In this document: positions 5,057 through 27,990 of the stretch, piece by piece | Numbering within the stretch: the stretch's first letter is position 1 | How the letters are laid out: each line of letters begins with the position of its first letter | Assembly (NCBI GenBank): GCA_963695545.1 | Contig: OY968796.1 | Span: 1,184,001 to 1,248,000, forward strand | Source: Terriglobia bacterium | Lineage (GTDB): Bacteria; Acidobacteriota; Terriglobia; Acidiferrales; UBA7541 | Direction: 5' to 3' | DNA: 64,000 nucleotides | The notes under the pieces: model-generated | The model's database searches: none | What the model saw: the letters and a program-made list of their open reading frames with translations, nothing else | Told to the model about the DNA's origin: nothing | Position numbers and translations under genes: made by a program

Positions 5057-6505
5057 ATGTCCGTCTCGCTCAATTACGATGAAGCCGTCCGCTACCTGCT
5101 CTCGCTCGGCCGCGAACTGGCTTCGCCGCAACAAGCCAGCGCCACGAAATTCGGCCTTGAAAACATTCGCGCTCTCGTCGAACACCTGGGCCACCCCGAG
5201 CGCCGCTATCCCTCCGCGCTCATCGCCGGCACGAATGGCAAAGGCTCCACCGCCACCATGCTCGCCTCGATCCTCGATTCCGCCGGAATGCGCACGGGCC
5301 TTTACACTTCGCCGCACCTCGCGCGCATCAACGAGCGCATTCGCATCTCCGGCCGCGAAATTTCCGACGACGATTTCGCCGCCGCTCTAGCGCGCATCCG
5401 CAAAGCCATCGAAGAACTGCTCGCAGCCGGCGATCTCGCGGCCCATCCAACTTTCTTCGAGTGCGTCACGGCCATGGCCTTCGATGAATTTGCCCGCGAG
5501 CGCGTCGATTTCGCTGTGTTCGAGGTCGGCATGGGCGGCCGTCTGGATGCGACCAACGTCATCGAGCCCGAAGTCGCCGTCATCACGCAAATCGCGTTCG
5601 ACCACGAAAATTTTCTAGGTCATTCCATCGAGGAAATCGCCGGCGAAAAAGCCGGCATCATCAAGCCCGGCGCGTGGGTGGTGAGCGCCGCGGAAAATCC
5701 ATCCGCGCGCGCCGTGATTCGCGCCCGCGCCGAAGCCCAGCACGCGCGCTTCGTCGAAATCGACGAAGCGTTTCACGTGAAACAATTGAGCGCCCCATAC
5801 GCCAGCGAAACCGCGAACGAAAGCGCGCCCGATTCGCTGCACGCCACCCACTTCGAGGCCATCGAGAAATCCTCAGACCGCGCAATCGAAATCACCGTGC
5901 CGCTCCCCGGCCGCTTCCAGCAGCGCAACGCCCTCGCCGCGCTCGCCGCAGCGCGCCTCCTCGCCGAGCGCGGATTCCCCCCGGTCTGCGCGGAGCGCAC
6001 TGCTTTAATCAACGATGCGGCCATCGCACGCGGCATCGCGCGAGTCCACTGGCCTGGCCGCCTCGAACGCATCGGCGATCGCCCCGCCGTGTACCTCGAC
6101 GGCGCTCACAATCCCGCGGGCGCGCGAGAACTCGTGGCTTTTTGGGATGAGCACTTCGCCGGCGTTCCAATTCATCTGGTTTACGGCGCGCTGCGCGATA
6201 AGCCTGTCGACGAAATCTGCGGCCTACTCTTCCCGCGCGCCGCCACCGTGATCATCACCGAGCCGCGCCAGCCCCGCGCGCTCTCCGCGTCCGTGCTAGC
6301 CGCCATGACAGCCCATTTCGCACACAACGTCGAGATCGTCCCCGATCCCGCCGTCGCTCTCGAGCGCGCGGTCCTCCGCGCCGCGCCCGAAGACGCCGTC
6401 TTCGCCACCGGCTCGCTCTACCTCATCGAAGACTACCGCCGCGGCTGGGCCAACGCCCACGCCGCCAGCGCTTCCTCGCCGCCGATCCGCGGAAGTTCAC
6501 GTTAA
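5057..6505 (+). CDS. folC: Bifunctional folylpolyglutamate synthase/dihydrofolate synthase
   Basis: IAGTNGKGST, YTSPHL, EVGMGGRLDATN, WPGRLE, LDGAHNP, TGSLYL. Confidence 0.96.
   Translation: MSVSLNYDEAVRYLLSLGRELASPQQASATKFGLENIRALVEHLGHPERRYPSALIAGTNGKGSTATMLASILDSAGMRTGLYTSPHLARINERIRISGREISDDDFAAALARIRKAIEELLAAGDLAAHPTFFECVTAMAFDEFARERVDFAVFEVGMGGRLDATNVIEPEVAVITQIAFDHENFLGHSIEEIAGEKAGIIKPGAWVVSAAENPSARAVIRARAEAQHARFVEIDEAFHVKQLSAPYASETANESAPDSLHATHFEAIEKSSDRAIEITVPLPGRFQQRNALAALAAARLLAERGFPPVCAERTALINDAAIARGIARVHWPGRLERIGDRPAVYLDGAHNPAGARELVAFWDEHFAGVPIHLVYGALRDKPVDEICGLLFPRAATVIITEPRQPRALSASVLAAMTAHFAHNVEIVPDPAVALERAVLRAAPEDAVFATGSLYLIEDYRRGWANAHAASASSPPIRGSSR
5769..5784. promoter_or_regulatory. 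parS-like centromere site inside folC
   Basis: CGTTTCACGTGAAACA, one mismatch to the canonical TGTTTCACGTGAAACA. Confidence 0.6.
5981..6007 (-). repeat. 27-bp hairpin micro-repeat, in-frame copy in folC (encodes PVCAERTAL)
   Basis: CCGGTCTGCGCGGAGCGCACTGCTTTA is the reverse complement of the unit at 20792-20818 with 2 mismatches. Confidence 0.8.
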
Positions 6506-12873: not shown

Positions 12874-14115
12874 ATGCGCGCCTCGGTTCTCCATTCCATA
12901 CCACAACGCCTCGTTCCCGCCTTCAGCACACAGCGTGGCTTGAAGCGCCGCGCACCGCGCAGATCAGAATTGCGCCGTGGTTCAGAAATTCCCGAACGCA
13001 TTGGCGGCCGCACTGGAATCGCGTTGCTCCTCGCGCTCGCAACTTTCGCCGTCGCTGGCTGCGGCGCGCCCGGTGAGCCTGAACCGCCAAAACCAATCGT
13101 GCCGCAACCCGTCGCCGATCTCGCCGCGCGGCAGCAAGGCGACACCGTAATCCTGACCTTCACGCTGCCGGCTCGTTCGACCGAAAATGAGAATTTGGAC
13201 GGCGTTCCCACGGTTGAGATTTACCGCGGCATGCTCGCTGCGGGAGAAGCGGGCCATAAAACAACTACGCATCTCGTCTACACAATTCCTGCCGCGCTCG
13301 TGGATACCTATCTCTCCGGCGAACATTTGGAATTTCGCGATCCATTTCACACCGATGATCTCGCGCGCGAAGCCGGCGCGAGCATGGTGTACATGGTGCG
13401 CACGAACGTCTCGCGCCGGCACGATTCCGCCGATTCCAACATCGCCGAAACGCAAATCTATCCCGTGCCCGCTCCACCCGTCGCGCTGCGTGCTGTCGTC
13501 ACCGAGCACGCGATCGAAGTCGCCTGGGACGCTCCCGCGGCGGCCTCGGGAATTTCAGGCTACCGCGTTTATCGCGGCGAACTCGCATCCGATTCCCCGC
13601 CGAACGAAACCGATCTCGCCAAAATGAAATTCGTTTCGCCGCTCGCGCTCGCGGGACCGGCATCCGAAACAGCCTTCGACGACGCGCAGTTTGAGTTCGG
13701 CCACACCTACGTCTATATCGTGCGCAGTGTGGCGCAATACGGACCGAACGAAGTTGAATCGGACGATTCCGCGCCCGCTATCGTCACCCCGCGCGACACA
13801 TTCCCTCCCGCCGCGCCGCGCGGCCTCGAAGCAATTTACGTCCCGGCAACCGCCGGGGCGCCTGCCGACATCGAACTCTCGTGGGACATCAGCCCGGAAT
13901 CGGACCTGGCCGGTTACAACGTCTATCGCAGTGAACAACCGGGCACACGAGGCCAGAGATTAAACCCGGAATTGTTGCCCAGCCCGGCGTTTCGTGATAT
14001 TCAGGTGGCCGCCGACAAGCATTACTTCTATTCGGTTTCCGCCGTCGATCGGGCTGGCAATGAAAGCTCCCTGAGCCCCGCGGTTTCCGCAGAAGTCCCG
14101 GCGAATTCGCCGTAG
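12874..14115 (+). CDS. Fibronectin type III domain lipoprotein (start uncertain)
   Basis: Lipobox VAGC; FN3-like motifs GYRVYR, DLAGYNVYR, YSVSAVDRAGNES. Confidence 0.8.
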   Translation: MRASVLHSIPQRLVPAFSTQRGLKRRAPRRSELRRGSEIPERIGGRTGIALLLALATFAVAGCGAPGEPEPPKPIVPQPVADLAARQQGDTVILTFTLPARSTENENLDGVPTVEIYRGMLAAGEAGHKTTTHLVYTIPAALVDTYLSGEHLEFRDPFHTDDLAREAGASMVYMVRTNVSRRHDSADSNIAETQIYPVPAPPVALRAVVTEHAIEVAWDAPAAASGISGYRVYRGELASDSPPNETDLAKMKFVSPLALAGPASETAFDDAQFEFGHTYVYIVRSVAQYGPNEVESDDSAPAIVTPRDTFPPAAPRGLEAIYVPATAGAPADIELSWDISPESDLAGYNVYRSEQPGTRGQRLNPELLPSPAFRDIQVAADKHYFYSVSAVDRAGNESSLSPAVSAEVPANSP

Positions 14116-14149
14116 GCAGCTAGGCTCCGCAAGGAAAAAAGAAAGAGGC

Positions 14150-14614
14150 GTGAAGGCGATGACCCGAACTCAATTCTCGGGCATAGAGAGATTTTTCTCG
14201 CTGCGCGGCGCGACGCTGCGCACCGGAATCTTCACGGGCCTCGCGCTTTCCGCGGTGCTGGTGGCGTGGGTGCTCGTAGCCAATCGCGTCGCGCAACTTG
14301 AATCCTTCGCGCTCGAGCGCAATTGCGCCGCCGTCGGCGCGTTGCTGGCGCTGATGGCCATTCCGGTTTGCCGGTTCGTGAAATCTCCACGCGCGCTGTT
14401 TATTTCCGGCGTTGCCGCCTGGACGATTTTGACGTTCGCGTATATGGCGTTGGAAGTGTTTTTTCCGCGCCTCGAAGATCGAATGGGGCCGTTGCAACTC
14501 TTCATGCTCGGAGCGACATCCTACGGGCTTCTGGCCGTAATCGGTTGGGTGATCGGCATTATCCGCCTCGCGCGTCACCAGCCCCTGGTAGCGACGCGGC
14601 GCAGACATCCCTGA
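14150..14614 (+). CDS. Hypothetical four-TM membrane protein
   Basis: RBS-like AAGAGG before GTG; four hydrophobic segments. Confidence 0.65.
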   Translation: MKAMTRTQFSGIERFFSLRGATLRTGIFTGLALSAVLVAWVLVANRVAQLESFALERNCAAVGALLALMAIPVCRFVKSPRALFISGVAAWTILTFAYMALEVFFPRLEDRMGPLQLFMLGATSYGLLAVIGWVIGIIRLARHQPLVATRRRHP

Positions 14615-14714
14615 TCCTCGCTCGCGCCGTCCCGCTGATCTGTCTCCTTCGGCGTTGTGATTTCCCGCAACGATCCCAACCCGACCCGTGGGCGGTCCAG
14701 CCTTTGACCTGAGG

Positions 14715-14881
14715 TGGGGGGTAGCGCACCCTTTGCCCGCGTCTGTAGTTTTTCAGTCCTCACGCGCAGATTCTACTAATAGCGACCTTCACCCTGGAGT
14801 AACATCGGGCGTCTGTCGGGCTGCGGTGTGCGCAGCCCGGGGTGGCCCATCCTTTGTCCGCTGCGGCGGACAAAGGGTGGG
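14715..14881 (+). repeat. Left long inverted flank of RAYT, ending in REP hairpin GGGTGG-CCCATCCTTTGTCCGC-tgcg-GCGGACAAAGGGTGGG (14840-14881)
   Basis: Imperfect reverse-complement match over ~165 bp to 15480-15645. Confidence 0.85.
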
Positions 14882-14898
14882 TCCGTGGGCTCCCCTTG

Positions 14899-15456
14899 AT
14901 GCCCTGGAATCTCAAATGCTACTACGGCAGCCAAGACCTCCATTTCCTTACGTACACGTGCTACCGGCGGTTGCCACTTCTTTCCTCCGCGCGCGCCAGA
15001 AACGTGTTCGTTGAGATTCTCGCGGAAGTCCGCGATGGCTACGGTTTTCTTCTCGCCGGATACGTCGTGATGCCTAACCACGTTCATCTCCTGATCGGCG
15101 AACCCGCGAAAGGAACGCCTTCCACCGTGATGCAAGTGCTCAAGCAAAGAGTCTCGCGCCGCCTGCGCGCCAGGAAGAGGCGCGCGCCGCAAACGCAACT
15201 CCAGCTCGCATTCGTCGAAGGCGAACTCATGCCGCGGCAATTCTGGCAGCGCAGATTTCACGATTTCAACCTGTGGAGTCACAAGAAAATAATCGAAAAG
15301 CTCGAATACGTGCACATGAATCCGGTGAAGAACAACCTGGTGGAACATTCGAAGCACCGCGCTCCGCGCGGGCCGGCAAAGGACTGGCCGTGGAGCAGTT
15401 GGTCGTACTACGCGAAGGGCGAGCAAGGACTCGTCCGGATCGACGAGAGTTCGTAG
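14899..15456 (+). mobile_element. REP-associated tyrosine transposase (RAYT, HUH Y1 family)
   Basis: HFLTYTC, YVVMPNHVHLLI (HUH), FWQRRFHD, EYVHMNPV (catalytic Tyr), WPWSS; flanked by REP hairpins. Confidence 0.92.
15350..15376 (+). repeat. 27-bp hairpin micro-repeat, in-frame copy within RAYT
   Basis: CGAAGCACCGCGCTCCGCGCGGGCCGG vs TAAAGCAATGCGCTCCGCGCAGGCCGG, with a compensatory T-A to C-G change in the stem. Confidence 0.75.
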
Positions 15457-15479
15457 AAGCGATCCCGGAAATCGAAAGC

Positions 15480-15645
15480 CCCACCCGTTGTCCGCTGCGG
15501 CGGACAAAGAATGGGCACCCCGGGCTGCACAAGGCGCAGTCCGCCAGACGCGCCACGTTACTCCAAGGTGAAGGTCGTTAGTGGTATCATTCGCGCGTGG
15601 AGCACGAGAATCGCGAGACGCCCATATAGGGTCTGCCACCCGCCC
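15480..15645 (-). repeat. Right long inverted flank of RAYT with REP hairpin (15480-15520)
   Basis: CCCACCCGTTGTCCGCTGCGGCGGACAAAGAATGGGCACCC then sequence complementary to the left flank, ending CCACCCGCCC. Confidence 0.85.
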
Positions 15646-16119
15646 GTGCAGAACGTACAGAGCTTCCGCGCTTCCCCGGGGTGCACGGCAGCAGTCACAG
15701 CCCTCTCGACGGTTGCCGGAGCCTACGCCGGGGCATCGGTTCTCGGCCCCTTGCTAGCGCCGGCAGGCGCTGCTGCAGGGGCGCCGGGAGGGCCGCCAGG
15801 CGCCGCCGCGGGAGTCGCGGCGGCAGAGGTCGCCGGCGCTGCGGCAGGCGGGGCTGCCGGCCACGCAATCGCCCCAGCCGTTTCAAATATAATGTGCTCC
15901 TCCGGCACGGGGAGCGGAGGCCAGAGCGGCGGGTCGCGCGGCGGAGGCAGTGGGCAGAGAGAGAACCGGGCATTTAAAGAGGCAGTTAGGAGGATCAATC
16001 AGGATAGACGGGAGCCGTTGACCCCGGACCAGGTTCGAGCGCTTCACGACGAAATCCCGAACCAAGGATTTAGCCTTGATGAGATAGTGGAAATCGGCAA
16101 GGGAATGTTCAGGAACTGA
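15646..16119 (+). CDS. Orphan polymorphic-toxin C-terminal tip (Rhs-CT-like fragment)
   Basis: Gly/Ala-rich hydrophobic linker, GS linker, then a small charged domain NRAFKEAVRRI...LHDEI...EIVEIG; no Rhs core; followed 12 bp later by a small acidic gene. Confidence 0.6.
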   Translation: MQNVQSFRASPGCTAAVTALSTVAGAYAGASVLGPLLAPAGAAAGAPGGPPGAAAGVAAAEVAGAAAGGAAGHAIAPAVSNIMCSSGTGSGGQSGGSRGGGSGQRENRAFKEAVRRINQDRREPLTPDQVRALHDEIPNQGFSLDEIVEIGKGMFRN

Positions 16120-16131
16120 GGACGGAAAACC

Positions 16132-16623
16132 ATGAGTGCTGCAAACGCGGAGATTATGGAAATCGTATCGACTCTAAAGGGCAAGGCGCCCTGGGGGGTC
16201 CGCTTGGGTCATGGTTCGTTCGTAACGATGGAGTTTGGAGACCCGGATCCCAGAGCAGGCGGTCGGGTCATCCATGGCGAGTGGCACCTGTGGCTGTACA
16301 TGTGTAACTGGAGGATCGAGGCCAAACACAGGATTTTCGCGGGATCAAACGACGACCGCAAAGCGATTGAGGCAACGCTGGGAGATTTATCGTTTGACAG
16401 CATCGAATCGATCGACGTTATACAGCCGTCGCTAGATCTCTCCATTCAGTTCCGGTCAGGGATAAGGATACTTACATTTTCGTCTTCCTCTGATCACGAT
16501 GAAGAAGAGTGGAAGCTATTTACCCCCGGCGGGAAATGCCTGCTGGCGTACGGCGACGGCACCTATGAGTACGCCAGAAGCGACGAACCTAGTCCACGGA
16601 CGAGCGGCGGCCCCGAGGCCTAG
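16132..16623 (+). CDS. Putative immunity protein
   Basis: GAGG RBS; acidic 163 aa with GEWHLWLYMCNWRI and EEWKLFTP; directly downstream of the toxin-like tip. Confidence 0.6.
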   Translation: MSAANAEIMEIVSTLKGKAPWGVRLGHGSFVTMEFGDPDPRAGGRVIHGEWHLWLYMCNWRIEAKHRIFAGSNDDRKAIEATLGDLSFDSIESIDVIQPSLDLSIQFRSGIRILTFSSSSDHDEEEWKLFTPGGKCLLAYGDGTYEYARSDEPSPRTSGGPEA

Positions 16624-16626
16624 ATC

Positions 16627-16654
16627 GGCGGGTGGCGCAGCCTTTGACGTGAGG
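16627..16654 (+). repeat. REP half-site closing the toxin/immunity cassette
   Basis: GGCGGGTGG is the exact reverse complement of CCACCCGCC at 15636-15644; 16630-16654 matches 14690-14714 at 21/25. Confidence 0.75.
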
Positions 16655-16732
16655 GTGGCCCTCGATAAGAACGAAGGCGCTGTCAAGGCGCAGAACGCAC
16701 GTCCCGGTGTTTTACCACCGCGGCGTTGCCAC

Positions 16733-16908
16733 AGAAGATGGAGGACCAAGACTCTGGAAATCTCACGGTAAATCATTTCGCTATGCCCCACACCAACCGT
16801 ATTCGAATAATAACTTATAGATAATATTGACATTACATTGCCGCCCGTGCTATCATGTTGCATGAGCCTCGTACCGCACCTCTCATCCGCATTCCCGCGC
16901 AAGATTTT
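16733..16908 (+). repeat. 176-bp promoter-bearing element, copy 1 (TTGACA 16827-16832, TATCAT 16851-16856)
   Basis: Ungapped inverted homology to 21222-21397, including a 28-bp exact core TAAATCATTTCGCTATGCCCCACACCAA. Confidence 0.85.
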
Positions 16909-17395
16909 TCCGTTCGGGCCCGGCTCAGCCGCGCAAATCCTGGCGGACAACTTTACGCCCGCACGTCGGAGCCTGCCTGCCGCCCGCCCTGCTCGGCCTA
17001 CAAAATCCCATCGATTGACCACAACCGAACCGTGCTTACCCGCACAAACGCGTCGCCGTAAACCGCTGATTCCAAACCAAATGCAAAAGAGTGCGCATCT
17101 TGCTGAAAATAAACGCTCGCAAGCCCATTGCGCTCAATCTCTTGCGCACTCTTTCTCACTCTTTTCCCGCAAGCCCTGTATTTGCCGCTCTTACGCAAAA
17201 GATACCCGGGGGTGTACCCCCCTCCAGCCGCGATCTCGCTCCCGCAACACGCATCACAAGCTCATCTCAGCCCGCAGTGACGGGGAGGTCGGCTCTCGGC
17301 GTTTCGACGGTCAAAACCTGCGTCCCACTGGCTGCGTGGAAGGCCTTCCGCGGTTCCTGTAAACTATCCGCGGCACAACGCCTAAAAGGGACATC

Positions 17396-18208
17396 ATGAA
17401 ATTTTGCCGATTCCAATTGCTTGAATTCAATGCCGCCGCGGCCGGCCGCTCCGGCGAAACCGTGCATCCCGAGCCGCGCATCGGCCGCGTCGAAGGCGAC
17501 ACGGTTCACGAACTCTCCGGCAGCCTGCTTGGCGAGAACAAGGCTTCCGGCCACACGTGGAAACTTTCCGAAGTGGCTCTGCTGCCGCCGTCGGTGCCCA
17601 CCAAAATCGTTTGCGTCGGGCGCAATTACCTCGAACACGCCGCCGAATTCAACAGCGAAGTTCCCAAGGAGCCGCTGATCTTTCTGAAACCGCCCTCCGC
17701 AATTATTGCGTCCGGAGAAACAATCGTTCTGCCCGCGATTTCCAAGCGCGTCGATTACGAAGGCGAGCTGTGCGTGGTGATCGCGCGGCGCTGCCGAAAA
17801 TTGTCCGATACGGACGACGTTCGCCCGTACATCGCCGGATACACCTGCTTGAACGACGTCAGCGCGCGCGATTTGCAATTCACGGATCCGCAATGGACGC
17901 GCGCGAAAGGATTTGACACGTTCTGCCCGTTCGGTCCCGTGCTCGAGACTGAACTCGATCTCAAGCACACCACGGTTGAGACTTACCTCAATGGCGTTAA
18001 GAAACAGTCCGCGCCGACCACGGACATGATTTTTTCCGTTGATGTTATAATTCGCTGGATCTCGCGCGTGATGACGTTCGAGCCGGGCGACATCATTGCC
18101 ACTGGCACGCCCTCGGGCGTCGGTCCGCTGGCCGCGGGCGACATCGTGGAAGTCGTCGTCAGCGGCGTCGGCACGCTGCGCAATTCGGTTCAGGCGGCGA
18201 ACTCTTAG
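17396..18208 (+). CDS. Fumarylacetoacetate hydrolase family protein
   Basis: KIVCVGRNY, FLKP, DYEGEL, NDVSARDLQ, AKGFDTFCPFGP, TGTPSGVG. Confidence 0.95.
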   Translation: MKFCRFQLLEFNAAAAGRSGETVHPEPRIGRVEGDTVHELSGSLLGENKASGHTWKLSEVALLPPSVPTKIVCVGRNYLEHAAEFNSEVPKEPLIFLKPPSAIIASGETIVLPAISKRVDYEGELCVVIARRCRKLSDTDDVRPYIAGYTCLNDVSARDLQFTDPQWTRAKGFDTFCPFGPVLETELDLKHTTVETYLNGVKKQSAPTTDMIFSVDVIIRWISRVMTFEPGDIIATGTPSGVGPLAAGDIVEVVVSGVGTLRNSVQAANS

Positions 18209-18239
18209 CGCCAGCCGCGATGCGCGGACAAACAGGAAT

Positions 18240-18707
18240 GAATTGAAGGCGCTCACCGACGATTGGAGGCTCCTTGCCGCAGCGGGCGCGGCCGTCGCGG
18301 TGGCGATTGCCGTCGCGTCGTACGCGAAATTTCGCCGCCGCCCCGATGCCGACGAGATCGAGCGCAGGCGGCGCGCGCACGTGAATCAGATAGGACGCAT
18401 CGCCGAAGGACGCGTCACGGAACTCGCGGAGGTTCCGCCGTCCGCCGCGCCGAACGCTCGCTTCGGGATGTTTCGCGGCGCCGACAAAAATTCCGCCAAC
18501 CGCGCGGCGCGCAACCGAAAACTTCTCTGGTACACCTACTCGATTTCCGGCGTCACGTACGAAACCGCGCAGGACATCACCGGTCTTGAACATCGCGCCG
18601 CCGGACGCGGGCAATTGCTCTCCGGTCAACTAGCAAGCGTGAAGTACGATCCGGCGAACCCGAGCAATTCCATCCTGGTATCGGAAGACTGGTCGGGCCT
18701 GCACTAG
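18240..18707 (+). CDS. Membrane-anchored hypothetical protein (start uncertain)
   Basis: N-terminal TM helix; YTYSISGVTYE...VKYDPANPSNS resembles DUF3592-type OB-like domains. Confidence 0.6.
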   Translation, partial: ELKALTDDWRLLAAAGAAVAVAIAVASYAKFRRRPDADEIERRRRAHVNQIGRIAEGRVTELAEVPPSAAPNARFGMFRGADKNSANRAARNRKLLWYTYSISGVTYETAQDITGLEHRAAGRGQLLSGQLASVKYDPANPSNSILVSEDWSGLH

Positions 18708-18762
18708 CTCGCATCGCGCACCGCGCTCGAATCAACTGAAGCGGCGGAGACCGCTGATTCAG

Positions 18763-19047
18763 ATGTCGCAAATGCCCCGAAAAATCGCGATCGGCGTGTT
18801 CGCAGTGGTCGCAGCATTCAGCGTTCTGCTGGCTGCATCGGTCGCGGTTGTTTTTGCCACGCTGCGCATCGAGCGCATCGCAGCTCCTGCCGCGCACGCG
18901 GTCGCAGCCTTCGGCGAGCTGATTCTTGGCGCGGCCGTGCTGCTCGTGGCCGTCTACATCTCGACGCGCGTCGTCGTTCGCTCCCTCGCGACGGAAGTCG
19001 GCACTACTGGACGGCGCGACCTAACACCTCCCAAGCAAAAACCCTGA
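18763..19047 (+). CDS. Small two-TM hypothetical protein
   Basis: GGAG RBS; two hydrophobic helices. Confidence 0.55.
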   Translation: MSQMPRKIAIGVFAVVAAFSVLLAASVAVVFATLRIERIAAPAAHAVAAFGELILGAAVLLVAVYISTRVVVRSLATEVGTTGRRDLTPPKQKP

Positions 19048-19570
19048 AAGATTGGTGGGTAGGATGTATCAGTCCTCCACGGCGGGCTTCGATCCGCTCT
19101 GACAATCTCATTTGGAGAACGTTTCCCGCGATCGCCTGGAAGGACTCAACCAGAGGAGTGAGATCAATCCTGGCCGGATCATGCTCATATCCGATTACGA
19201 GTACCGCTCGACGCTCAGACCCTGAATACTCCAGCAGTTTGTAGCAATCGCCGATCGTGCTGACGTTTCCGGGATAGGGGTGTAAAAGATTGACCGACCA
19301 ATTCTCCGCTTCCTTGCCGTTGTCTCCAAATGGACGCGTGATCTTGACTTCGACTGCCCACTCGCCCGGGACGAGGAGATCTGAAGTTCTCTTTGTCCGG
19401 ACGCTCCCCCGATACCTCGGCAGCGTGTTTAAGTGCAATGAGATGCGCTTGACCAACTGAGGTTCGCCATACGGTCCAACACCCGGCTGGAACGCCCGAA
19501 AGTTCTCGTGAGACGCATCGACCTGAACGAGCGCGTCGCTGATATCCGAGACTAGTTCTTGCAAGGTCAT
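19004..19570 (-). CDS. Hypothetical protein, possible PD-(D/E)XK nuclease fold
   Basis: E(PQLV)...SDLLVPGEWAVEVK matches the (P)D-x(n)-EVK pattern. Confidence 0.5.
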   Translation of the reverse strand: MTLQELVSDISDALVQVDASHENFRAFQPGVGPYGEPQLVKRISLHLNTLPRYRGSVRTKRTSDLLVPGEWAVEVKITRPFGDNGKEAENWSVNLLHPYPGNVSTIGDCYKLLEYSGSERRAVLVIGYEHDPARIDLTPLVESFQAIAGNVLQMRLSERIEARRGGLIHPTHQSFRVFAWEVLGRAVQ

Positions 19571-19626
19571 TGGCGAACCATTGTGAGAAGCGATTAGATG
19601 GCCAGTACCGCCTTTCCCTCCCTGAG

Positions 19627-20754
19627 CTACTGCTGTGGCGGAGGCGCTTCGGAGGGAGGCTGAGAATCGGGCGGAGGCGCGCCAGGGGCGGGCGGCGCAG
19701 CGGGCGTGGCGGTGATTTCGGGAAGGCGGCCGGCGGATTCGATGACTTGCTGCGCGAGATAATTTTCAACCTTAGCTTCATCGCGCGCTTCGGTGAGATA
19801 GGCGGTGCGCAGCAATTGCTCTTTGCGCGTGCGCAGGGCGTCGCGAATGGTTTGCTGTACGGATGGATCGTTCAGATCGCGCTGGCCGGGCGCTTCCTTG
19901 GAGATGAGCTTCAGGATGCGGTAGGAATCCGGGAGGACGATGACGTCACTGATCTCGCCGGGCTTAAGCGCCATTACTGCTTTTTTAAGCGCGGGATTGC
20001 TTTGGCCCAGCGAGGATTCCGGAACGTAACCGAGGTCGCCGCCGGAGCCGGCAGTCTGCGGATCTTCGGAATAATCCATGGCCAATTCCGAAAAATCCGC
20101 GCCGCTTTTCAGTTGCTGCATGAGCATGGCGACTTTGCGGCGAGCCTCAGCGTCGGTGGTGGCGTCGTCGTTCTTGCGATTGCGCACTTCGGGATCCTTG
20201 TGCGGCGTGACCACGATTTGCGCGAGGCGGTATTGGGTTTCCGCAACGTTGAACTGCTGGCGGTTCTCATTATAGAAGTCGGTGACGTCCTGATCGGTGA
20301 TGGTGACTTTGGAATTGACTTCGGCGTTGATGAGCTTCTGGATGGAGAGCTCGCGGCGAATATCTTTTTTGAGGTCGTCAACGGTGACGCCGCGCGCCTG
20401 CAACTGGCGTTGAAATTCATCGTCGGTGTAAGGACTCTTGAATTCGGTGAATTTATCCTCGACATCTCCATCGGAAGCGGACAGGCCGAGTTTCTGGGCG
20501 CGCTCGAGCAGAATTTCGTTGTTGATGAGGTCGTCGAGGATATTGAGCATGAGCGAGAGCGCTTCTTCGTGGGAGGGCATTTGCGCTTCGGGATTGACCC
20601 GCGTGCGGTAATACTGCTCGACCTCGCTGCGCTGAATCTGCGTGCCATTCACTTCGGCCCACACGTCGGGCGAAGGAGCTTCGCCCTTGCGACAGCCGCC
20701 CGCCCAGGCCACGGTCGCCACGATCAGTGCTGCCGAAATCAGCCGCTTTTGCAT
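19627..20754 (-). CDS. SurA/PrsA-like parvulin peptidyl-prolyl isomerase lipoprotein
   Basis: Lipobox AGGC, SurA_N region, FSELAMDYSED..GGDLGY rotamase motif. Confidence 0.9.
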   Translation of the reverse strand: MQKRLISAALIVATVAWAGGCRKGEAPSPDVWAEVNGTQIQRSEVEQYYRTRVNPEAQMPSHEEALSLMLNILDDLINNEILLERAQKLGLSASDGDVEDKFTEFKSPYTDDEFQRQLQARGVTVDDLKKDIRRELSIQKLINAEVNSKVTITDQDVTDFYNENRQQFNVAETQYRLAQIVVTPHKDPEVRNRKNDDATTDAEARRKVAMLMQQLKSGADFSELAMDYSEDPQTAGSGGDLGYVPESSLGQSNPALKKAVMALKPGEISDVIVLPDSYRILKLISKEAPGQRDLNDPSVQQTIRDALRTRKEQLLRTAYLTEARDEAKVENYLAQQVIESAGRLPEITATPAAPPAPGAPPPDSQPPSEAPPPQQ

Positions 20755-20764
20755 CTCGCCTCGT

Positions 20765-20822
20765 TGAAGCAATGCGCTCCGCGCAGCCGATTAAAGCAAT
20801 GCGCTCCGCGCAGGCCGGTGCC
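20765..20822 (+). repeat. Tandem pair of the 27-bp hairpin unit
   Basis: AAGCAATGCGCTCCGCGCAG exact at 20767-20786 and 20794-20813 (period 27). Confidence 0.9.
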
Positions 20823-21013
20823 TACGCCGCTTTGACGACTTTCCCGTCGCGCAGACACGATGTGCATACGCGCACTTGCTTGCGCACGCCGGAGACCACG
20901 GCGCGAACGCGCTTGAGATTGGGAATCCAGCGGCGACGCCGGGCATTATTGGCGTGGCTGATCACATTTCCATACTGCGGAGATTTTCCGCAAATTTCGC
21001 ATTTCTGCGCCAT
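20822..21013 (-). CDS. rpmB: 50S ribosomal protein L28
   Basis: CEICGK..GNVISHANN..RRRWIPNL..VCTSCLR. Confidence 0.97.
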   Translation of the reverse strand: MAQKCEICGKSPQYGNVISHANNARRRRWIPNLKRVRAVVSGVRKQVRVCTSCLRDGKVVKAA

Positions 21014-21138
21014 GTCTGCTCCTTACAGTGTTTCCAGTACGCGTTTCAACAGCCACTAAAACCTACAAAGTATAGCAACGAACGTCACGCCAGCCTAGAA
21101 CGCGGTTTTGGGAAGAGCGATAGGCGGGGGCGATTGTG

Positions 21139-21192
21139 GCCATGCGCTCCGCGCAGTTGATTAAAGCAATGGGCTGCGCGCGGACCGGGGCC
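21139..21192 (+). repeat. Second tandem pair of the 27-bp unit (direct repeat of 20769-20822)
   Basis: 54-bp ungapped match with about 8 mismatches. Confidence 0.85.
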
Positions 21193-21221
21193 GAATGCTC
21201 GGAACGATCGGACCGTGACCG

Positions 21222-21397
21222 AAAATCGTGTGCGGGTGAGCGGACGGGAGGTGTTGTTCGAGGTTCATACTCAATGGTAGCACGAACGACAATACGATGT
21301 CAATATTACCTATGGGTCATTATTCGAATACAATTGGTGTGGGGCATAGCGAAATGATTTAGTGTGAGATTTGCAGGGTCTTGGTCCTCCGTCTTCT
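21222..21397 (-). repeat. 176-bp promoter-bearing element, copy 2 (TTGACA 21303-21298, TACCAT 21279-21274)
   Basis: Inverted homolog of 16733-16908. Confidence 0.85.
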
Positions 21398-21444
21398 AAC
21401 GATTGCGGTACGGGCGAGATGAGCCGCGACGGTCGAAATATCAG

Positions 21445-21513
21445 AAAACGTCCCGTCTGTCCCCGATGATCCGTCTGTCCCCGATGATCGTCCCCGATGA
21501 TCCCGATGATCCC
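21445..21513 (-). repeat. Family-B repeat (GGGGACAGACGGGACGTTTT) with telescoping duplications
   Basis: AAAACGTCCCGTCTGTCCCCGATGAT/CCGTCTGTCCCCGATGAT/CGTCCCCGATGAT/CCCGATGAT/CCC. Confidence 0.9.
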
Positions 21514-21517
21514 AATC

Positions 21518-21844
21518 TCACCACAGGGGCGGAACACCCGGCTTGTACCAAGGATTGACTTGCCAGAAATGGACGAGTTGCACCGCGCCGATTGCGATTA
21601 GCGAAAGGCCAAGCGCCAGAAAAACGATGCTCGCAATGCCCAGGCGGCCATGAGGATAAGTTCGTTTATATTCTCGAACGAGCGTGAGTGCCTTCACAGG
21701 GATAAACGCATATGTGACCTGTTGGTCAGTCGAAAGTTTTCGGTTTATCTTTCCGATCATCACGTACAGAATCCGCAAGCAGATGCCCACTGCGCTCAAA
21801 CCAACGCAGAAAATTACGGCCGGAACGAACGGAAAAGTTATCAT
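21518..21844 (-). CDS. Putative membrane immunity protein, paralog 2
   Basis: Shares GKIN..L...QQ, YPH.RL and HFWQ.NP with 22027-22359; two TM segments. Confidence 0.7.
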   Translation of the reverse strand: MITFPFVPAVIFCVGLSAVGICLRILYVMIGKINRKLSTDQQVTYAFIPVKALTLVREYKRTYPHGRLGIASIVFLALGLSLIAIGAVQLVHFWQVNPWYKPGVPPLW

Positions 21845-22026
21845 TGCTCCACCCCTTCGGTATTCCACTGTGCCAGCGCGCTAAATTCGGCGGTCCGACG
21901 CTGGCTAGGGTCGGGCGTTCCGCGGGTTTGGCCGCGTCCCCTTTTAATTACCACTTTTCAAAGTCGGCGTCGGCAGCGCTAGTTTCCCGACATCGAACCT
22001 TAAACGCGCGCCCTGCCCTGGAAACC

Positions 22027-22359
22027 TCACCAGGGAGAAGGCCAAGGGGCTGGCCAATAGCTGGGGTTGGCCTGCCAGAAATGGATCAGGCGTACCGCCG
22101 CGACCAAAATTAACAGAATGCCAAATGCAAGGGCAGCGATACGCACGGCATTGAGGCGGCTGTGGGGGTACAGCCGTCTGAACTCTCGGTTGATCCTAAT
22201 CATCTTTGGGAAATGGAAGACCACGTATCCGATCTGCTGCTGGTCCGGGAGTCGTTGGTTTATCTTGCCGACGACCACATACAGCATCAGGGTCGAAATA
22301 TTTATCATTGCAGTGCCCAACGCGATCAAGACCACCGCATCAACCGGTGCAGTTATCAT
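22027..22359 (-). CDS. Putative cognate membrane immunity protein of the Rhs toxin
   Basis: ATG overlaps the Rhs stop (ATGA); two TM segments. Confidence 0.75.
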   Translation of the reverse strand: MITAPVDAVVLIALGTAMINISTLMLYVVVGKINQRLPDQQQIGYVVFHFPKMIRINREFRRLYPHSRLNAVRIAALAFGILLILVAAVRLIHFWQANPSYWPAPWPSPW

Positions 22360-24180
22360 GGACATGCGGCTTGTCTCGCATAGTAGAGAACGGGGTCAAA
22401 CGGTGCCAACGCGAGGGCGCCTGCACGGCCCATACTGTGCTGCTTTGCTGTCTTGGTGCCCGCGATCGCCGCTCCCGGGTTGCCCGCAAGCGAAGCCCCG
22501 TAGACACGAGCAGTTTTTCCAAACGATGCAAATCCCCCAACTCCTTCGGCAGAGGCAGAGGCGGTAGCAAAAGGTCCCGAATAGCCGCTATTGTCGGATC
22601 CCAGGTCACCGTAGATGAAACCCGAGGAAACTGACGCGCCCTCTCCCCCGCCTTGTCCGCCTCCAGTCCAAGATAAGGTTACGTTGCCGTTGTTATAGTT
22701 GACGACGGTCGAAACGCTGCCAGTAAGCCCGAGCCCGCCAGGGAAATTTACCGTCAGACTCGTCGCGCGACCCTGAGGAAGCGCCGAACAGACCTTCGCG
22801 GCGACTTGGCGGAAGAATCCAGGCGATTGCGGTGATTGGAAATTTCTGTATATCTCTTGGCAAAGGAAGCTCGACATGTCGCACACGAATGTGTCAAACA
22901 ACGGGGGAGGGGGAGGGCATGGCGTATCTCCGCAGCCGTGAGGCGCACGCCGTTGCGCCGCCCATTGTGGGTCGCCGCCGGTAAGTACTTGGCCGCCGTC
23001 GGAACTGCAGTCTGACGGCTCCTCGTCATCGGTAATACTGTCAGCGGGGCTGGCTTGCCTGTCGCGTCCAATCGTGTAGAGGCATCCGTCAGGACTTAGT
23101 CCGCTCGGATCGGTTAGGGTGACTGGGTTGTTGCGCACGTACGTATAGAGATTCAACTGCTGTGGATCCGTTGGATCGGCCTGGGAAATTCCGGATGGGT
23201 CCGGGGACATAAAGCGGGCTCCGGAGAAAGTGTAGAAGCGCGCGTCGAAGTTGTAGAGGTTGGATTCGGTGTCGAATTCCTTGTGGGTAAATTTGTAGTT
23301 ATTGGTGCTGGTCTCGGTGGCGACGTAACACTCGTTGCCGTAGGGACAGTAGTCGATATCTTCGAGGGTGTTGCCGCTCGAATCGGTCAGGATGCGGGTC
23401 GAGTCGAGATCGTCGGCGAAGTAATATTCGACGTCGCCGGAGGAGGAGGCGTCGCGGCGGGCGATGCGTGAGCCGTTCAGGAAGACGTACTCGTGGAAGG
23501 CGCTGTCGGTGGTGCTGCCAGTTCCGTCAGTCTCTTCAAGCGCGTCGGTGCCGGTTCCGTACCAATAGAGCTCGTAAAAGGGAGGGTCGGTAGCCATGTA
23601 CTTCTCGACGCGCTTGCCATCGCCGTCGTAAAAGTAGTTCACGCCAGCGGTGGAGGTCAACTCGTTTTCGGCATTGTAGGTGTACGTGGGAGACGTCGGC
23701 GGACAAGGCGAACTCGTCTCCGCAAGCAGATTGCCCGCGGCGTCGTAGCAGTAGCCGGAGATCTGATTCTGGGCGGTGGCTGCCATAGAGGCGGAGGACT
23801 CCTCGAACGGCAGGCTCTCGTAGGACTGGAATTGAGTCAAATTGCCCCAGGGGTCAATCTGGTAGGACTCGCCCCAAGCTCCGCTAGCGGCAGACGCGAT
23901 CCGATTCAGCGGATCATAAGCAAACGTTTCCGATCGCGATGAGGTGACGCCATTTGCGATATGCGTGATGTTCCCATTGTTGCCGGTATGGGGACTGGAA
24001 GGGCACGCGCCGCCGGACAGCGGATAGTAACAATAAGTGAGATTGAGTTCCGCGCTGCCCGTGGAATACGCCAGGATCGAGGACGGCTGGAGTCGAGGAT
24101 TGTACGAAGCGTCGAGATTGATGCCCGTGAATGAGCCGCCTTCGCCCATGAGCGCCGACGTTAGCGCACCGGCGGGATTG
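22356..24180 (-). pseudogene. Rhs/YD-repeat toxin, C-terminal part (core end plus Gly-rich tip), cut by IS
   Basis: YD repeats, YKFTHKEFDTESNLYNFDARFY, RFMSPDPSG, LNLYTYVRNNPVTLTDPSGL autoproteolysis motif. Confidence 0.9.
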
Positions 24181-24220
24181 TGACCAGCCCGAGTTTTTGT
24201 ACCACGGTGAATGAGAGAGT

Positions 24221-25063
24221 CTACATCACAGCCGTCGACGGCGAACCGAGAATTGGCGGCACCAAGGGGCTACAGGCCACCGGCGCCGGTGGCCTGTAGC
24301 CCAGCGCTGAGTGCGGACGCAGCGTGTTGTACACCATCCGCCATTTCTCGATCACGATCTGCGCTTCCTTCAGCGAGTAAAAAATCTCTCCGTTCAAACA
24401 TTCATCGCGCAATTTCCCGTTGAAGCTTTCGCAGTAGCCATTCTCCCAAGGGCTTCCCGGTTCGATGTACAGCGTCCCCGTTCCCACCTTCGCCAGCCAA
24501 CTCCTCAGCTCCTTGGCCACGAACTCCGGGCCGTTGTCCGAGCGAATATGTTCCGGAATTCCCCGGTAAAGCATCACGTCCGCCAGCGCTTCGATCACTT
24601 CGTATCTCCCCAGCCTTCTCGCCACGCGGATCGCCAGGCACTCCCGCGTGTATTCGTCGATCAGCGTCAGCATTCGCAGTGTTCGGCCGTCGTGGGTCAT
24701 CGCGCTCACGAAATCGTAGCTCCACACATGGTTGGCTCGTTCCGGCCGGAGACGAACACACGATCCGTCGTTCAACCACAGCCTTCCTCGCGGCCTTTGT
24801 CCCTGCGGCACTTTCAGCCCTTCGCGCCGCCAGATCCGCTGCACCCGATCCTTGCCCACATACCAGCCCCGTGCTTGCAACAGCGCCGTGATCCTCCGAT
24901 AGCCGAAGCGCCCGTACTCGCTGGCCAGCGCCACGATGTCTCGCGTCAGCGCGTCTTCATCCGTTCGGTGGATCACCTCGTAGCGTTGTGTCCCTCTCCA
25001 CTGCCCCAGCAACCGGCAGGCATGCCGCTCTGATACTTGGTAGCTCTCGCGTGCATGCTCCAC
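24221..25063 (-). CDS. IS3 transposase OrfB (DDE integrase core; fused to OrfA by -1 frameshift)
   Basis: WSYDF, RSDNGPEF, PGSPWENGYCESFNGKLRDECLN, RPHSALGY. Confidence 0.95.
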   Translation of the reverse strand: MEHARESYQVSERHACRLLGQWRGTQRYEVIHRTDEDALTRDIVALASEYGRFGYRRITALLQARGWYVGKDRVQRIWRREGLKVPQGQRPRGRLWLNDGSCVRLRPERANHVWSYDFVSAMTHDGRTLRMLTLIDEYTRECLAIRVARRLGRYEVIEALADVMLYRGIPEHIRSDNGPEFVAKELRSWLAKVGTGTLYIEPGSPWENGYCESFNGKLRDECLNGEIFYSLKEAQIVIEKWRMVYNTLRPHSALGYRPPAPVACSPLVPPILGSPSTAVM

Positions 25064-25086
25064 CGCGCTACGTCGCCGCTCAGGGC

Positions 25087-25365
25087 TTAGAAGTTTCCCT
25101 CTGCCACATCCTTCAGAATTTGCTTCTCCAACGAAAGCTCCGCCACCAACCGTTTCAGCTTGGCGTTTTCCCGCTCCAACTCTTTGAGGCGTTTCGCTTG
25201 ATCCAACTTCAGGCCGCCGTATTCCTTCCGCCAGCGGTAGTAGGTCTGCGCGGTGATCTCGGCTTCCTTGCAGGCTTGTGGGGTGCTCTTTCCGTTGGCG
25301 ATTTCAACTTCAACTTGCCGCAGCAGCGTGACGATCTGCTCCGGCTTGTATCTCCTCATCGGCAT
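25087..25365 (-). CDS. IS3 transposase OrfA (HTH)
   Basis: YKPEQIV, TYYRWRKEYGG, RLKELERENAKLKRLVAEL. Confidence 0.95.
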   Translation of the reverse strand: MPMRRYKPEQIVTLLRQVEVEIANGKSTPQACKEAEITAQTYYRWRKEYGGLKLDQAKRLKELERENAKLKRLVAELSLEKQILKDVAEGNF

Positions 25366-25430
25366 ACCAGCTTCCCTCCAGAGTGAATTCTCTCTCACTC
25401 CCGCTGGTACAAAAAACCCCGGTCAGGTCA

Positions 25431-27223
25431 GTGATGAAGGTTCCCGACGAGACCATTCTGCTGACGCCGGTCAGATTTCCTCGCACGGTTTGGGATGCCG
25501 AATAGTTGGAATCGTCGTGGTTCGTCGCGCCGGTCTGGGAGGACAGTGAGGTAGCGTCGTAGGAAAAGTTCGTCTGCGCAATCATAGTTCCCCTGCTCGA
25601 TCCGCTGCCACGATACACACTGATGGACGATGGGAGGTCTAAGATATGCTGATTCTCGTACGTGCTGGTTTGGACGTAACTCACGTCGGTTTCCCGAAGG
25701 AGGTTGCCGTTGAAATCGTAGACCTGGACCAAATCGGGGAGGTACGCGTAGCCCGTATACCCGTATTTGCTTGTGGATGACATTCCGTTTCCTATCGATG
25801 TCGTGACCGATTCCACGTCTTGGAGGTCATCCTCGACATACGTGGCGCTTCTTAGCAGAGTTCCAGAGGACGAGCCCGCGTAGAAGTTCGCCACATACTG
25901 GGTCAATATAAAGTAGTCCGCGGGGCAGTAATGATACGTGAAAGCGTAGGTTGATTGGTTCTCGGTGCCGCTTTCATCGGCCGGGTCCGTAACCGTCAGT
26001 GCGGCATTTCCCAGCGACGGATCGCCCCCCTGACAGGAAATCGCTGACCAGTTGAACCCCCACGTGGCCCCTTGCTCGGTAAGCGTTGCCAGCTTTAGGT
26101 CGCCGACGAAAAAACCGTCCCCGTTGGGTGGATTGACGACTTGGTAGGTGAACCCCACCTCGCCGCCCGTGGGCAACGTCATGCTGGTCATTTGCCCATA
26201 GTCTCCTGGACTCGTTCCCCCGTCGTAGCCGAATTGATAGCTTCTGCCGTCGGGTAGAGTGATGCTTTGTACGACCATCATCGGGCCTGTGAACTGAGTG
26301 GTGCCGTTAAAGCCGCCAACCCAGGCGGGGAAATTGGTGCTTACCTGGATGGTTTCCATCTGAATTGTGGCTCCGCCATAACTGTAGGTAGGCGAGGAAC
26401 TCGAGCAATTGGCGGTGCATTGCATATTCGGAATTTGCCGCCCAAGTTCGTCTTGAAGGTTGCTCGTGCCTGGAAAATAAAAATTGCCGTTGGAATCCTC
26501 GACGTTGCCAGAGCAGGCGTACTCGTATTGCGTACTCCCGGTGTAGCTGGCCGCGCTGCTGGTACACACGGATGCTCCGTGCTTATCCCAAATCTGTGCG
26601 GTCATCGAGGTAGCGCTTATGGTGACGGATATCTGGTAGCCGCTCGAATCCTGCGCGTAACCGGGCGTGACCTGGTTCGCGTAACCGCAGGCTGGCATCG
26701 AGTTGTCAAGGGTGCCGAGCCCAAACTGATGCTCTGTCCCGCTCGGGTCGATGTATACGAAATTTTGCCACGATTGGTATGACCAAGGGGAAGACCCATT
26801 GCCGCATTGCACGGATGAGCCTTCGCTAGTAGTGGACCCGAACATGCCGACAGGGCTGCCGGTAAATCGCCAGCCGGCGGTTGAATTGTCCGGAGTAGCG
26901 TCGTTCCACACGTAATTGTAGCCTTCGCCGGTGGGGTACGAAGATATCGAGTAGAACTGGCTGTCATAGGTCATCCCCAGATTGACAGTCTGTCCGTTTC
27001 GTTGCTTGTAGCTGAGAAGGGGGAACGCCAAGTGGACGTTCCCGTTCTCCAAATTGACCTCGCCCATGGGAATCTGCATGGAGGGGCGACTCGGCGGCGT
27101 CGGTCCAAGGCGCATCATGATGTCGTCGTCGTCGTTCTGTGCGACGAGCGGTAAGCAAAAAGCAACAAGAAGGAGCGCGCAGATTGAAGAAATACAGAAG
27201 ATCACGGCAGACGGGGTGCGCAT
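25431..27223 (-). pseudogene. Rhs/YD-repeat toxin, N-terminal part with Sec-type signal peptide
   Basis: GGAGGG RBS; MRTPSAVIFCISSICALLLVAFCLPLVAQ; VNLENGNVHL, ITLPDGRSYQFGYD, RGNLT; frame runs into the IS end. Confidence 0.85.
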
Positions 27224-27321
27224 GAGCATTCCCTCCGCAGGGCTTCGAGATGTGGTTGTCGCCGCGCCACGAAACATTTCACGGCGCCATGATTCTCTTA
27301 TTTCTATAAAGTGTAGTCGCG

Positions 27322-27537
27322 TTACGTGTCAAGGAGAATTATGGCGTCAGCGATAGGTCCATCGGACAGCAACACTTCGCGGAGTGGGGAAAGGCGGGCT
27401 TCGGCGAGGGGCAGGCCGGAGGCGACCAATTTTTGGACGTGCTGATCGAAGTGGAAGCGGAGCTCGGCGTCGAGTTCGGTTTCGACGGCGTTGCGTCGGA
27501 ACAGGGAGCGCAGGCGAATCCAGAGATCGTTGAGCAT
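27322..27537 (-). pseudogene. Truncated ADOP/ABC permease (only the N-terminal prefix remains)
   Basis: RLRSLFRR..E.ELDAELRFH......G...EAR prefix, then similarity is lost at ~27390; follows PadR. Confidence 0.8.
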
Positions 27538-27544
27538 GGGACTC

Positions 27545-27889: not shown

Positions 27890-27990
27890 GAATGTCCCCT
27901 GATACTTCTACAGGAGTATACGCCATCTCTTGTCGAAGTGCAAGAGGAAAAGCCGGCTCGTTAGGAATCGGCGGCGCGGCGTGCGTTCGG

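Follow-up and report, generated by a model that had tools for sequence, protein, structure and literature searches.

Orphan C-terminal tips of Rhs and other polymorphic toxins, accompanied by their immunity genes, are known from enterobacterial rhs loci. We know of no settled account of the benefit that REP-associated tyrosine transposases (RAYTs) and the repetitive extragenic palindromes (REPs) bring to their hosts. The closest described relatives of the element reported here are the REPtrons, or RAYT-REPIN systems, represented in the cited accounts by TnpA-REP of E. coli, Pseudomonas and Stenotrophomonas (PMC3116915, PMC5581495, PMC8266576), and in the biochemically studied RAYT groups (2 and 3) a conserved GTAG lies beside the hairpin, as far as the cited account extends (PMC8266576). 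Here we analyzed a 64,000-nucleotide stretch of a Terriglobia bacterium genome (contig OY968796.1, positions 1,184,001 to 1,248,000; hereafter the window), in which an intact RAYT gene between two inverted, REP-bearing arms directly precedes a putative toxin tip lacking its 5' part (headless) and a predicted immunity gene. We favor, with a probability of about one half, the reading that an IS-like (insertion sequence-like) RAYT/REP element is lodged here in a junkyard of toxin cassettes. The features of this locus, in window coordinates, are the following.

14690 to 14717, + strand: half of a short REP (end motif GGGCGGTCCAGCCTTTGACCTGAGG), standing in tandem before the end motif that belongs to the left flank; 78% identical to 16623-16654 and outside the flank homology in the alignment.
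14718 to 14885, + strand: left long flank, comprising the outer end motif, a conserved arm of ~100 nt and a REP hairpin (14846-14881); nhmmer score 170.5 bits.
14899 to 15456, + strand: intact RAYT gene (REP-associated Y1/HUH tyrosine transposase), assigned by Pfam, NCBIfam and motifs.
15470 to 15645, - strand: right long flank, inverted, with a hairpin at 15480-15515 and the outer end ...CCACCCGCCC at 15645; nhmmer score 156.7 bits.
15646 to 16119, + strand: putative headless C-terminal module of a polymorphic toxin, a Gly/Ala-rich hydrophobic stretch followed by a helical C-terminal domain of ~55 residues, with its frame open back into the flank.
16132 to 16623, + strand: predicted cognate immunity protein of 163 residues, from a family without Pfam model, assigned by homology context and predicted binding.
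16627 to 16661, + strand: half of a short REP carrying the family's 5' end motif, cut off before the hairpin, with six other genomic matches.

The open reading frame (ORF) at 14899-15456 encodes the HVH motif within 'MPNHVHLLIG' and the catalytic-type Tyr within 'EYVHMNP', matches Pfam Y1_Tnp (E 2.9e-12) and passes the NCBIfam model REP_Tyr_transpos with 97.5 bits (cut-off 80). In a sequence search of the PDB it aligned with the IS200-type transposase 2ec2 across the HUH region, and this search returned nothing beyond distant IS200-type transposases. The flanks are inverted copies of one another over 139 nt at 71% identity (14716-14854 and 15506-15644), rising to 84% over the inner 45 nt (14837-14881 and 15480-15524). 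Folding energies are -22.6 kcal/mol for the left hairpin (14846-14881; z -6.4), which none of 200 shuffled sequences equaled, and -13.6 kcal/mol for the right one (15480-15515; z -2.2), a decayed hairpin that 5 of 200 shuffled sequences equaled. An Rfam scan of window positions 14000-28000 gave no match at E values up to 1. Inverted REP hairpins also flank the RAYT in relatives (24 of 30 loci in which an inverted repeat was detected). The sequence-only reading of this DNA had proposed an intact RAYT between inverted, hairpin-bearing flanks of ~165 nt, and family models, arm alignments and folding bear this out; its further claim that the right flank ends at 15645 against a toxin-like ORF also holds, the frame of that ORF being open through the junction.

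Judged by its predicted enzyme and its inverted REP hairpins, the unit is of the RAYT/REP kind. As in REPtrons, its Y1/HUH transposase passes the NCBI RAYT model, inverted REP hairpins flank the gene and the genome contains dispersed, non-autonomous relatives of the flanks. Unlike REPtrons, of which one per genome is usual, it occurs in three copies with few dispersed derivatives (about 16 loci); its arms measure ~165 nt, their sharp end motif standing ~130 nt away from the hairpin, the family has hairpin-less 115-nt derivatives with terminal inverted repeats, and it is recurrently placed against toxin cassettes. Nor does a GTAG stand next to the foot of either hairpin, this tetranucleotide being found only in the outer arm, in three of six flanks. 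With IS200/IS605 elements the unit shares the transposase superfamily, single-strand hairpin ends, multi-copy behavior and the lack of any visible target duplication; however, its RAYT scores 42.4 bits on the NCBIfam IS200 model NF033573 (cut-off 55), and its two ends repeat one another in inverted orientation, in place of distinct left and right hairpins, with no conserved adjacent target.

The cargo downstream of the unit is, as far as homology and modeling can tell, a genuine pair of toxin tip and immunity gene without the delivery part. No family in Pfam or NCBIfam, and no known enzymatic family, was found for either protein. The 163-residue protein has 17 relatives in a large protein collection, and tblastn against species genomes gave 182 in Acidobacteriota, Cyanobacteria, Myxococcota, Actinomycetota and other groups; directly upstream of these relatives, in 21 of 80 loci and in several phyla, lies the tip domain, that is, the last ~55 residues of the headless ORF. 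This domain ends within 15 residues of the C-terminus in 44 of 46 representative proteins, whose lengths range from 57 to 1934 residues. Many of them are short orphans, and among 17 longer ones RHS/YD-shell matches were found in four to five and PT-HINT in three, an Rhs-attached form being present at locus L023. The consensus of the tip domain, which together with its partner spans 15937-16623 in the window and is represented at loci L022-L101, reads ...NRQFxEAVRxIE...LHDEISxQG...EIVEIG..MF and that of the partner GSFLTMEFG...HGEWHLWLYMCNWRIE. A model of the tip-partner complex scored 0.90, the best of three controls reaching 0.01, with at least 92% of contacts common to the model runs and a partner pLDDT (predicted local distance difference test) of at least 85; of 157 solved complexes 116 attain the mark taken to indicate binding, as do 2 of 215 mismatched pairs, a calibration that is only rough as own alignments were used. 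The modeling thus supports binding of the tip domain by the partner. The immunity gene has a GC content of 0.53-0.55, compared to ~0.60 locally. Conserved pairing, C-terminal placement on Rhs and PT-HINT proteins and predicted binding sustain the toxin-tip/immunity assignment that had been made for the cargo, and they point to a putative toxin and its immunity protein as a widespread pair in several phyla for which neither Pfam nor NCBIfam holds a model.

Like the known orphan Rhs tips, the window cargo consists of a delivery-less C-terminal module followed by an immunity gene, the tip also occurs on full-length Rhs and PT-HINT proteins, and at a distance of 6 kb the window contains a complete rhs gene with its tip and immunity genes. 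Unlike them, the window orphan starts at a RAYT/REP end and keeps no rhs-core stretch for recombination, it stands apart from the rhs array between two housekeeping genes, and its families have no Pfam model. The rhs gene of the window (21518-27277, - strand) is itself split into an N-terminal part (25310-27277) and a C-terminal part (22356-24149) by an IS3-family element (24221-25386); behind it come the genes of two small membrane proteins that are paralogues of one another (22027-22365 and 21518-21868), probably immunity genes, one of them an orphan. We also observed that the RAYT ORF and the tip ORF share one frame (14842-16119), separated by a single TAG (15454-15456) and open through the whole right arm. 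Nesting of the RAYT in-frame within a host gene was considered and rejected: going upstream from the RAYT, the frame is closed after ~100 nt, and in the two further copies of the unit described below (A and B) the RAYT and the tip do not share a frame, as calculated by hand from the coordinates.

On the distal side of the cargo, the 35-nt segment GGCGGGTGGCGCAGCCTTTGACGTGAGGGTGGCCC (16627-16661) begins 3 nt past the stop codon of the immunity gene, with the end motif GGCGGGTGG starting at 16627. Positions 15628-15644 and 16627-16643 are complementary at 82% over 17 nt. The 9-mer by itself is not significant. However, six further places in the genome resemble the segment at 88-97% identity over 22-35 nt (best E 5e-10), giving seven places for this short-REP half when the window's own is counted, and one of the matches (C1:3537642-3537715) runs on into a REP hairpin; the distal copy is therefore taken as a true family member, the 5' half of a short REP. 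By itself it forms no hairpin (z -0.7; 44 of 200 shuffled sequences folded equally well). Accordingly, the proposed inverse copy of the right end is present 3 nt after the stop and is a genuine piece of the REP family, whereas the hairpin expected of a complete REP is missing. The similarity that had been noticed between 16630-16654 and 14690-14714 proved to be part of a wider match of 32 nt at 78% (14683-14714 and 16623-16654).

We then placed the locus within its chromosomal neighborhood, where the bordering features are the following.

14150 to 14614, + strand: gene of a conserved membrane protein with four transmembrane segments (TM4), left border of the insertion, from synteny in five relatives; it directly adjoins the FAH gene in G001, G002, G005 and G015.
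16733 to 17275, + strand: repeat rep2 of ~540 nt, part of the insertion, whose near-consensus promoter (16827-16856) is directed into the FAH gene, from genomic copies and a promoter scan.
17396 to 18208, + strand: gene of an FAH-family hydrolase (PF01557, E 1.6e-68), right border of the insertion.

Comparison with relatives showed that hslU-fn3-TM4-FAH-p203 is a conserved gene order; neither Pfam nor NCBIfam offers a family for the TM4 protein. The gap between TM4 and FAH measures ~10-93 bp in the four relatives in which the two genes adjoin and 2.78 kb in the window genome, where it holds the RAYT unit, the cargo, the half-REP and the 540-nt repeat. As TM4 and FAH are adjacent in these four relatives, the whole 2.8 kb counts as an insertion. 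In the sister species G004 the same site carries 2.77 kb of unrelated genes, and in G003 more than 5.6 kb of other genes; REP-flank similarity is absent from both inserts, and the sole rep2 similarity in them is a 40-nt match in the G003 locus (L016). Since these inserts are unlike that of the window, the site is variable and has received different insertions in different species. The comparison across relatives suggested by the sequence-only reading thus found the two border genes adjoining in four relatives and other inserts in two closer ones. The G004 insert (L017, 9210-11976) encodes an XRE-type regulator and an HNH-like protein and also contains 'GGAAGTGTTGATT' repeats in a block.

The genome, a single contig of 4.16 Mb (C1), contains the whole ~930-bp RAYT unit in three copies at ~85% nucleotide identity, with unrelated DNA outside. 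Besides the window copy these are the following.

C1:1475559 to 1476467: RAYT unit copy A, a whole-unit genomic match.
C1:1478583 to 1479483: RAYT unit copy B, a whole-unit genomic match.

The three RAYTs are 87-90% identical to one another and at most 73% identical to the copy of any other genome. Between the window RAYT and its two paralogues the ratio of nonsynonymous to synonymous substitution (dN/dS) is 0.14-0.20 at a synonymous divergence (dS) of 0.19-0.33; on this ratio, the three are old duplicates retained under purifying selection. Using a profile built from six arms, nhmmer found 30 matches in the genome at about 16 loci. The outer end is reached by 13 long-flank copies, all of which start at model position 2-4, with inner ends varying from 103 to 168, and this constant outer start together with the variable inner ends identifies the outer end as a true terminus. 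Three solo copies at C1:2958868-2962642 (L102) are units of ~115 nt with the end motif inverted at both ends. These inverted ends define the element limits as GGCGGG...CCCGCC, from which it follows that the cargo, in the arrangement CCCGCC-cargo-GGCGGG, is not part of an element but stands between the facing ends of two neighbors. The solo copies of L102 make up one of two arrays, the other being C1:1710467-1713534 (L002), each with three same-oriented, hairpin-less arm copies spaced 0.7-2.2 kb apart. The genes between them are ordinary small ones, encoding a membrane-anchored protein, an outer membrane protein-like protein, a winged-helix protein and others. End motifs also occur in tandem, at 14690 and 14718 in the window and three in a row in G039. 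In the RAYTs of relatives the hairpin is followed after ~25-35 nt by the same GGCGGGTGG end, and the long arm is also present in G086.

A headless ORF begins at the outer end of all three RAYT units, on the 3' side of the RAYT and in its orientation, and two of the three ORFs are clearly toxin tips. At copy B, an Rhs tip ('RDPLLNSGRPSNPQTWNRYAYALNNPLNIIDPTGL...') in the RAYT direction is followed by two small genes; at copy A, a short tip-like ORF precedes a membrane protein, and this tip assignment is tentative, no family having been matched. At its other end, copy A is bordered by an Rhs-core fragment ending in '...NFGAR', which is not contiguous with the tip of A. Simple insertion of copy A into an rhs gene was examined and rejected, as the two sides form no single rhs frame.

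Beyond this genome, the RAYT family is present in 72 of 151 genomes of the order. Headless toxin homology begins 0-24 nt past the REP end in G104, G053, G039, G086, G069 and G031, a WapI-type immunity gene adjoins the RAYT of G004, and CAAX-protease genes adjoin three others. In G100 a DUF7674 gene lies between RAYT copies, with nothing further, and in four genomes tandem RAYTs stand 1.4-3 kb apart with small genes between them. We then tested local association with Rhs genes, using 90 RAYT copies from 78 loci in 57 genomes, each with up to 6 kb of surrounding sequence. An Rhs core-end match lay within 3 kb of 9 of the 90 copies (eight loci), compared to 0.88 expected within 6 kb from the per-genome Rhs counts, so that Rhs genes are enriched about tenfold near these RAYTs; six of the loci had been preselected for a nearby Rhs match, five of them being among the eight, and the other 72 loci contributed three loci (four copies). 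As a separate observation, the core homology of two orphan Rhs genes (L145, 5870-7393, in G086, and L149, 6200-7666, in G093) starts at the same point, 'CWGE[AS]Y', right at the REP end in one genus and without any REP in the other, which hints at a preferred breakpoint in rhs genes.

The anatomy of the unit, its copy number and sharp ends, the identity of the cargo, the status of the locus as an insertion and the recurrence and enrichment near Rhs genes are shown by the data above. According to the favored reading, the unit is an IS-like, REPtron-type element of ~930 bp, with a Y1/HUH transposase between two inverted arms of ~165 nt, each composed of a sharp end motif (GGGCGGGTGGCGCA...), a conserved stretch of ~100 nt and a REP hairpin. 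It would have multiplied in this lineage to three copies kept by selection, leaving hairpin-less and 115-nt derivatives behind, and would persist where insertion does no harm, in islands of polymorphic-toxin/immunity cassettes. Insertion beside or into toxin genes, followed by deletion or by recombination between element copies, would then leave a toxin gene without its 5' part exactly at the element end and an intact immunity gene, the loss of the toxin 5' part presumably coming after the insertion. The window cargo would be such an orphan pair, with the RAYT unit upstream and the stump of a second REP-type element downstream. The outward block of the arm (TGGTATCAT ... AAGGGTG) may, in addition, help to express promoter-less genes lying behind it and, as we infer, arm-driven expression of this kind would explain why hairpin-less outer arms are retained.

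Several observations weigh against this reading. The 5' part of the toxin gene was not found across any of the three units, and since it is missing on the other side of all of them, no simple insertion is visible. At a minimum of seven junctions in five genera, toxin homology begins 0-24 nt from the REP end, tighter than random insertion into spacers of ~150 nt would give, and no conserved target sequence was found past the ends. Moreover, in the array at C1:1710467-1713534 the ends lie at or within ~30 nt of the start codons of intact non-toxin genes, each arm copy standing 0-30 nt ahead of a different small gene, and the idea of a mere sink for insertions fails to predict ends at the starts of intact genes. 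The missing 5' part and the tiny distance from end to homology could come either from recombination between element copies, which would be ordinary, or from RAYT-mediated joining at the ends, which would be novel.

The latter possibility is taken furthest by the proposal, which we consider doubtful, that the RAYT acts on single-stranded DNA, cutting it at the outer end of a REP and joining it anew to a second cut end, so that downstream genes would be moved, swapped or stored in the manner of an integron. Slightly more doubtful is the specific form in which the GGCGGGTGG end is the RAYT cleavage and joining site, DNA behind one REP end is exchanged with other places or captured from them, and acidobacterial RAYT/REP units build and reshuffle stores of headless tips, immunity and small genes. 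Such capture would fit the headless ORF found on the same side and in the same orientation at all three units, the comparable junctions in six other genomes together with the WapI-type immunity gene at the G004 RAYT, the two arrays of same-oriented solo ends, the tandem RAYTs enclosing small genes and the proximity of Rhs-core matches to 9 of 90 copies; E. coli TnpA-REP is also described, in the account cited, as cleaving and recombining REP DNA in vitro (PMC8266576). With integrons, in functional analogy only, the locus shares folded single-strand sites beside small promoter-less genes and same-oriented arrays at two places in the genome; it differs in having no IntI-type recombinase, in that the cargo sites are inverted with one of them hairpin-less, and in that no sign of excision or re-insertion appears in the contigs of four soil runs from one study. 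The inverted rather than direct ends of the cargo, its position outside the element limits and the hairpin-less distal half-REP speak against capture or shuffling of the cargo by the RAYT, as do the arrays, whose solo ends are hairpin-less and whose genes are not toxin-related, and this central proposal of the sequence-only reading is not supported. Among cassette relatives in Acidobacteriota the end motif was close in 1 of 14 loci checked (L031, from the same genome as G069, with a decayed RAYT fragment and a REP nearby). The RAYT of G104 designated RAYT1 has one end against a headless IS66 transposase rather than a toxin, and in G047 and G093 the RAYT stands only at the far end of the rhs array. 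As a control, among the matches listed (150 of 448 for rve, a DDE transposase domain, and 150 of 475 for Rhs), 3 of 150 rve matches and 5 of ~115 RAYTs lay within 3 kb of a listed Rhs-core match, as counted by hand; each rate greatly exceeds chance, with no clear difference between the two, so that DDE insertion sequences are similarly enriched near Rhs genes.

Sequencing reads had been suggested as a place to look for circular or excised forms. Of seven runs listed, none of them an RNA run, the four soil runs from one study contained this DNA well; their contigs bridge 14709, 15645 and 16627-16661 exactly as in the window, and they are not independent support, since the runs may include the source sample of the genome. 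Two odd joints, 14883 to 17025 in three runs (side 43, 90% likeness) and an 'opposite strands' joint 14881/15467 in one contig, most likely come from other repeat copies or inverted hairpins. No empty or swapped site and no circle junction was seen in these contigs, a weak negative, since contigs drop rare variants. A limited literature search, mostly by title and abstract, found no report linking RAYTs to toxin cassettes.

Expression rather than movement is at the center of another explanation, in which the outer ~100-135 nt of the arm would be an exapted module, kept as an outward promoter and ribosome-binding region, above all for orphan immunity genes; we regard it as unlikely, and the same holds for its corollary that the origin of the junction is secondary. 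The best-conserved outward blocks of the 16 copies, GTTACTCC..GGTGAAG.TCGCTAGTGGTATCATCCGCGCGTG and AAGGGTGCGCCACCCGCC, are in keeping with such a role, the first containing a TGn-TATCAT extended -10-like motif, but the promoter scan calls no site in the arm and the -35 region is poor. All six array solos retain model positions 2-103 or more and none retains the hairpin, and three cargo genes start 0-30 nt past the end, which leaves no room for signals of their own; however, 10 of the 16 arm ends have no outward gene. Behind each of the remaining six stands an ORF with its frame open back into the arm for 42 nt or more. A GTG in the arm is common to four of them; four in-frame cases out of six lie within chance expectation (about 0.1), and a flank-encoded leader peptide was rejected on the same count. 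Finally, the REPs and the cassette may be unrelated neighbors in a crowded accessory region that abut without common cause. Open frames often overrun junctions in GC-rich DNA, base composition predicts about 0.26 occurrences of the degenerate 9-mer end motif per 12 kb and orientation, and at least one motif (L146, 5716) may be a chance match; nevertheless, the shared geometry of all three units, the independent 0-24-nt junctions in five genera and the roughly tenfold Rhs enrichment make mere coincidence very unlikely.

The second repeat family of the window, rep2, had been described as showing the same geometry around cargo. An inverted pair of 176 nt does exist (16733-16908 and 21222-21397), but it encloses the conserved housekeeping genes FAH and SurA and not cargo. 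The rep2 promoter consists of TTGACA-18-TATCAT with TG, an 11/12 promoter match. Other rep2 copies lie at C1:1473936-1474477, 1709291-1709875 and 3537855-3538179, and a 140-nt core occurs about 45 times in the genome. Every long copy stands at the border of an accessory island with its promoter toward the adjacent housekeeping gene (FAH, thiI or fabH), and the fragment at 21222-21397 points toward surA; rep2 may restore expression where the insertion of an island has separated a gene from its promoter. Next to RAYT copy A and against rep2 we noted a fragment of a second, unrelated Y1 transposase ('PHHVTQRGN...SNHMHLVV'; L001, 4387-5514, - strand; C1:1474387-1475514). A short repeat family (GATTAAAGCAATGCGCTCCGCGCAG...) is found on both strands of the window at 5981-6010, 20764-20822 and 21134-21192, also beside the rep2 fragment.

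Taken together, the analysis defines a widespread pair of putative toxin tip and immunity protein without a family model, and it brings to light rep2 as a promoter-bearing repeat that marks island borders by housekeeping genes. If capture were true, RAYTs would have a cellular role and would provide a single-strand, HUH-based counterpart of the integron. The RAYT family described here is IS-like, has unusually long, sharp-ended arms and is found at the broken 5' ends of toxin genes in several acidobacterial genera. Under the favored, ordinary reading, islands of toxin cassettes would be refuges for single-strand transposons, and such elements would in turn help to create stores of 'orphan' immunity genes.

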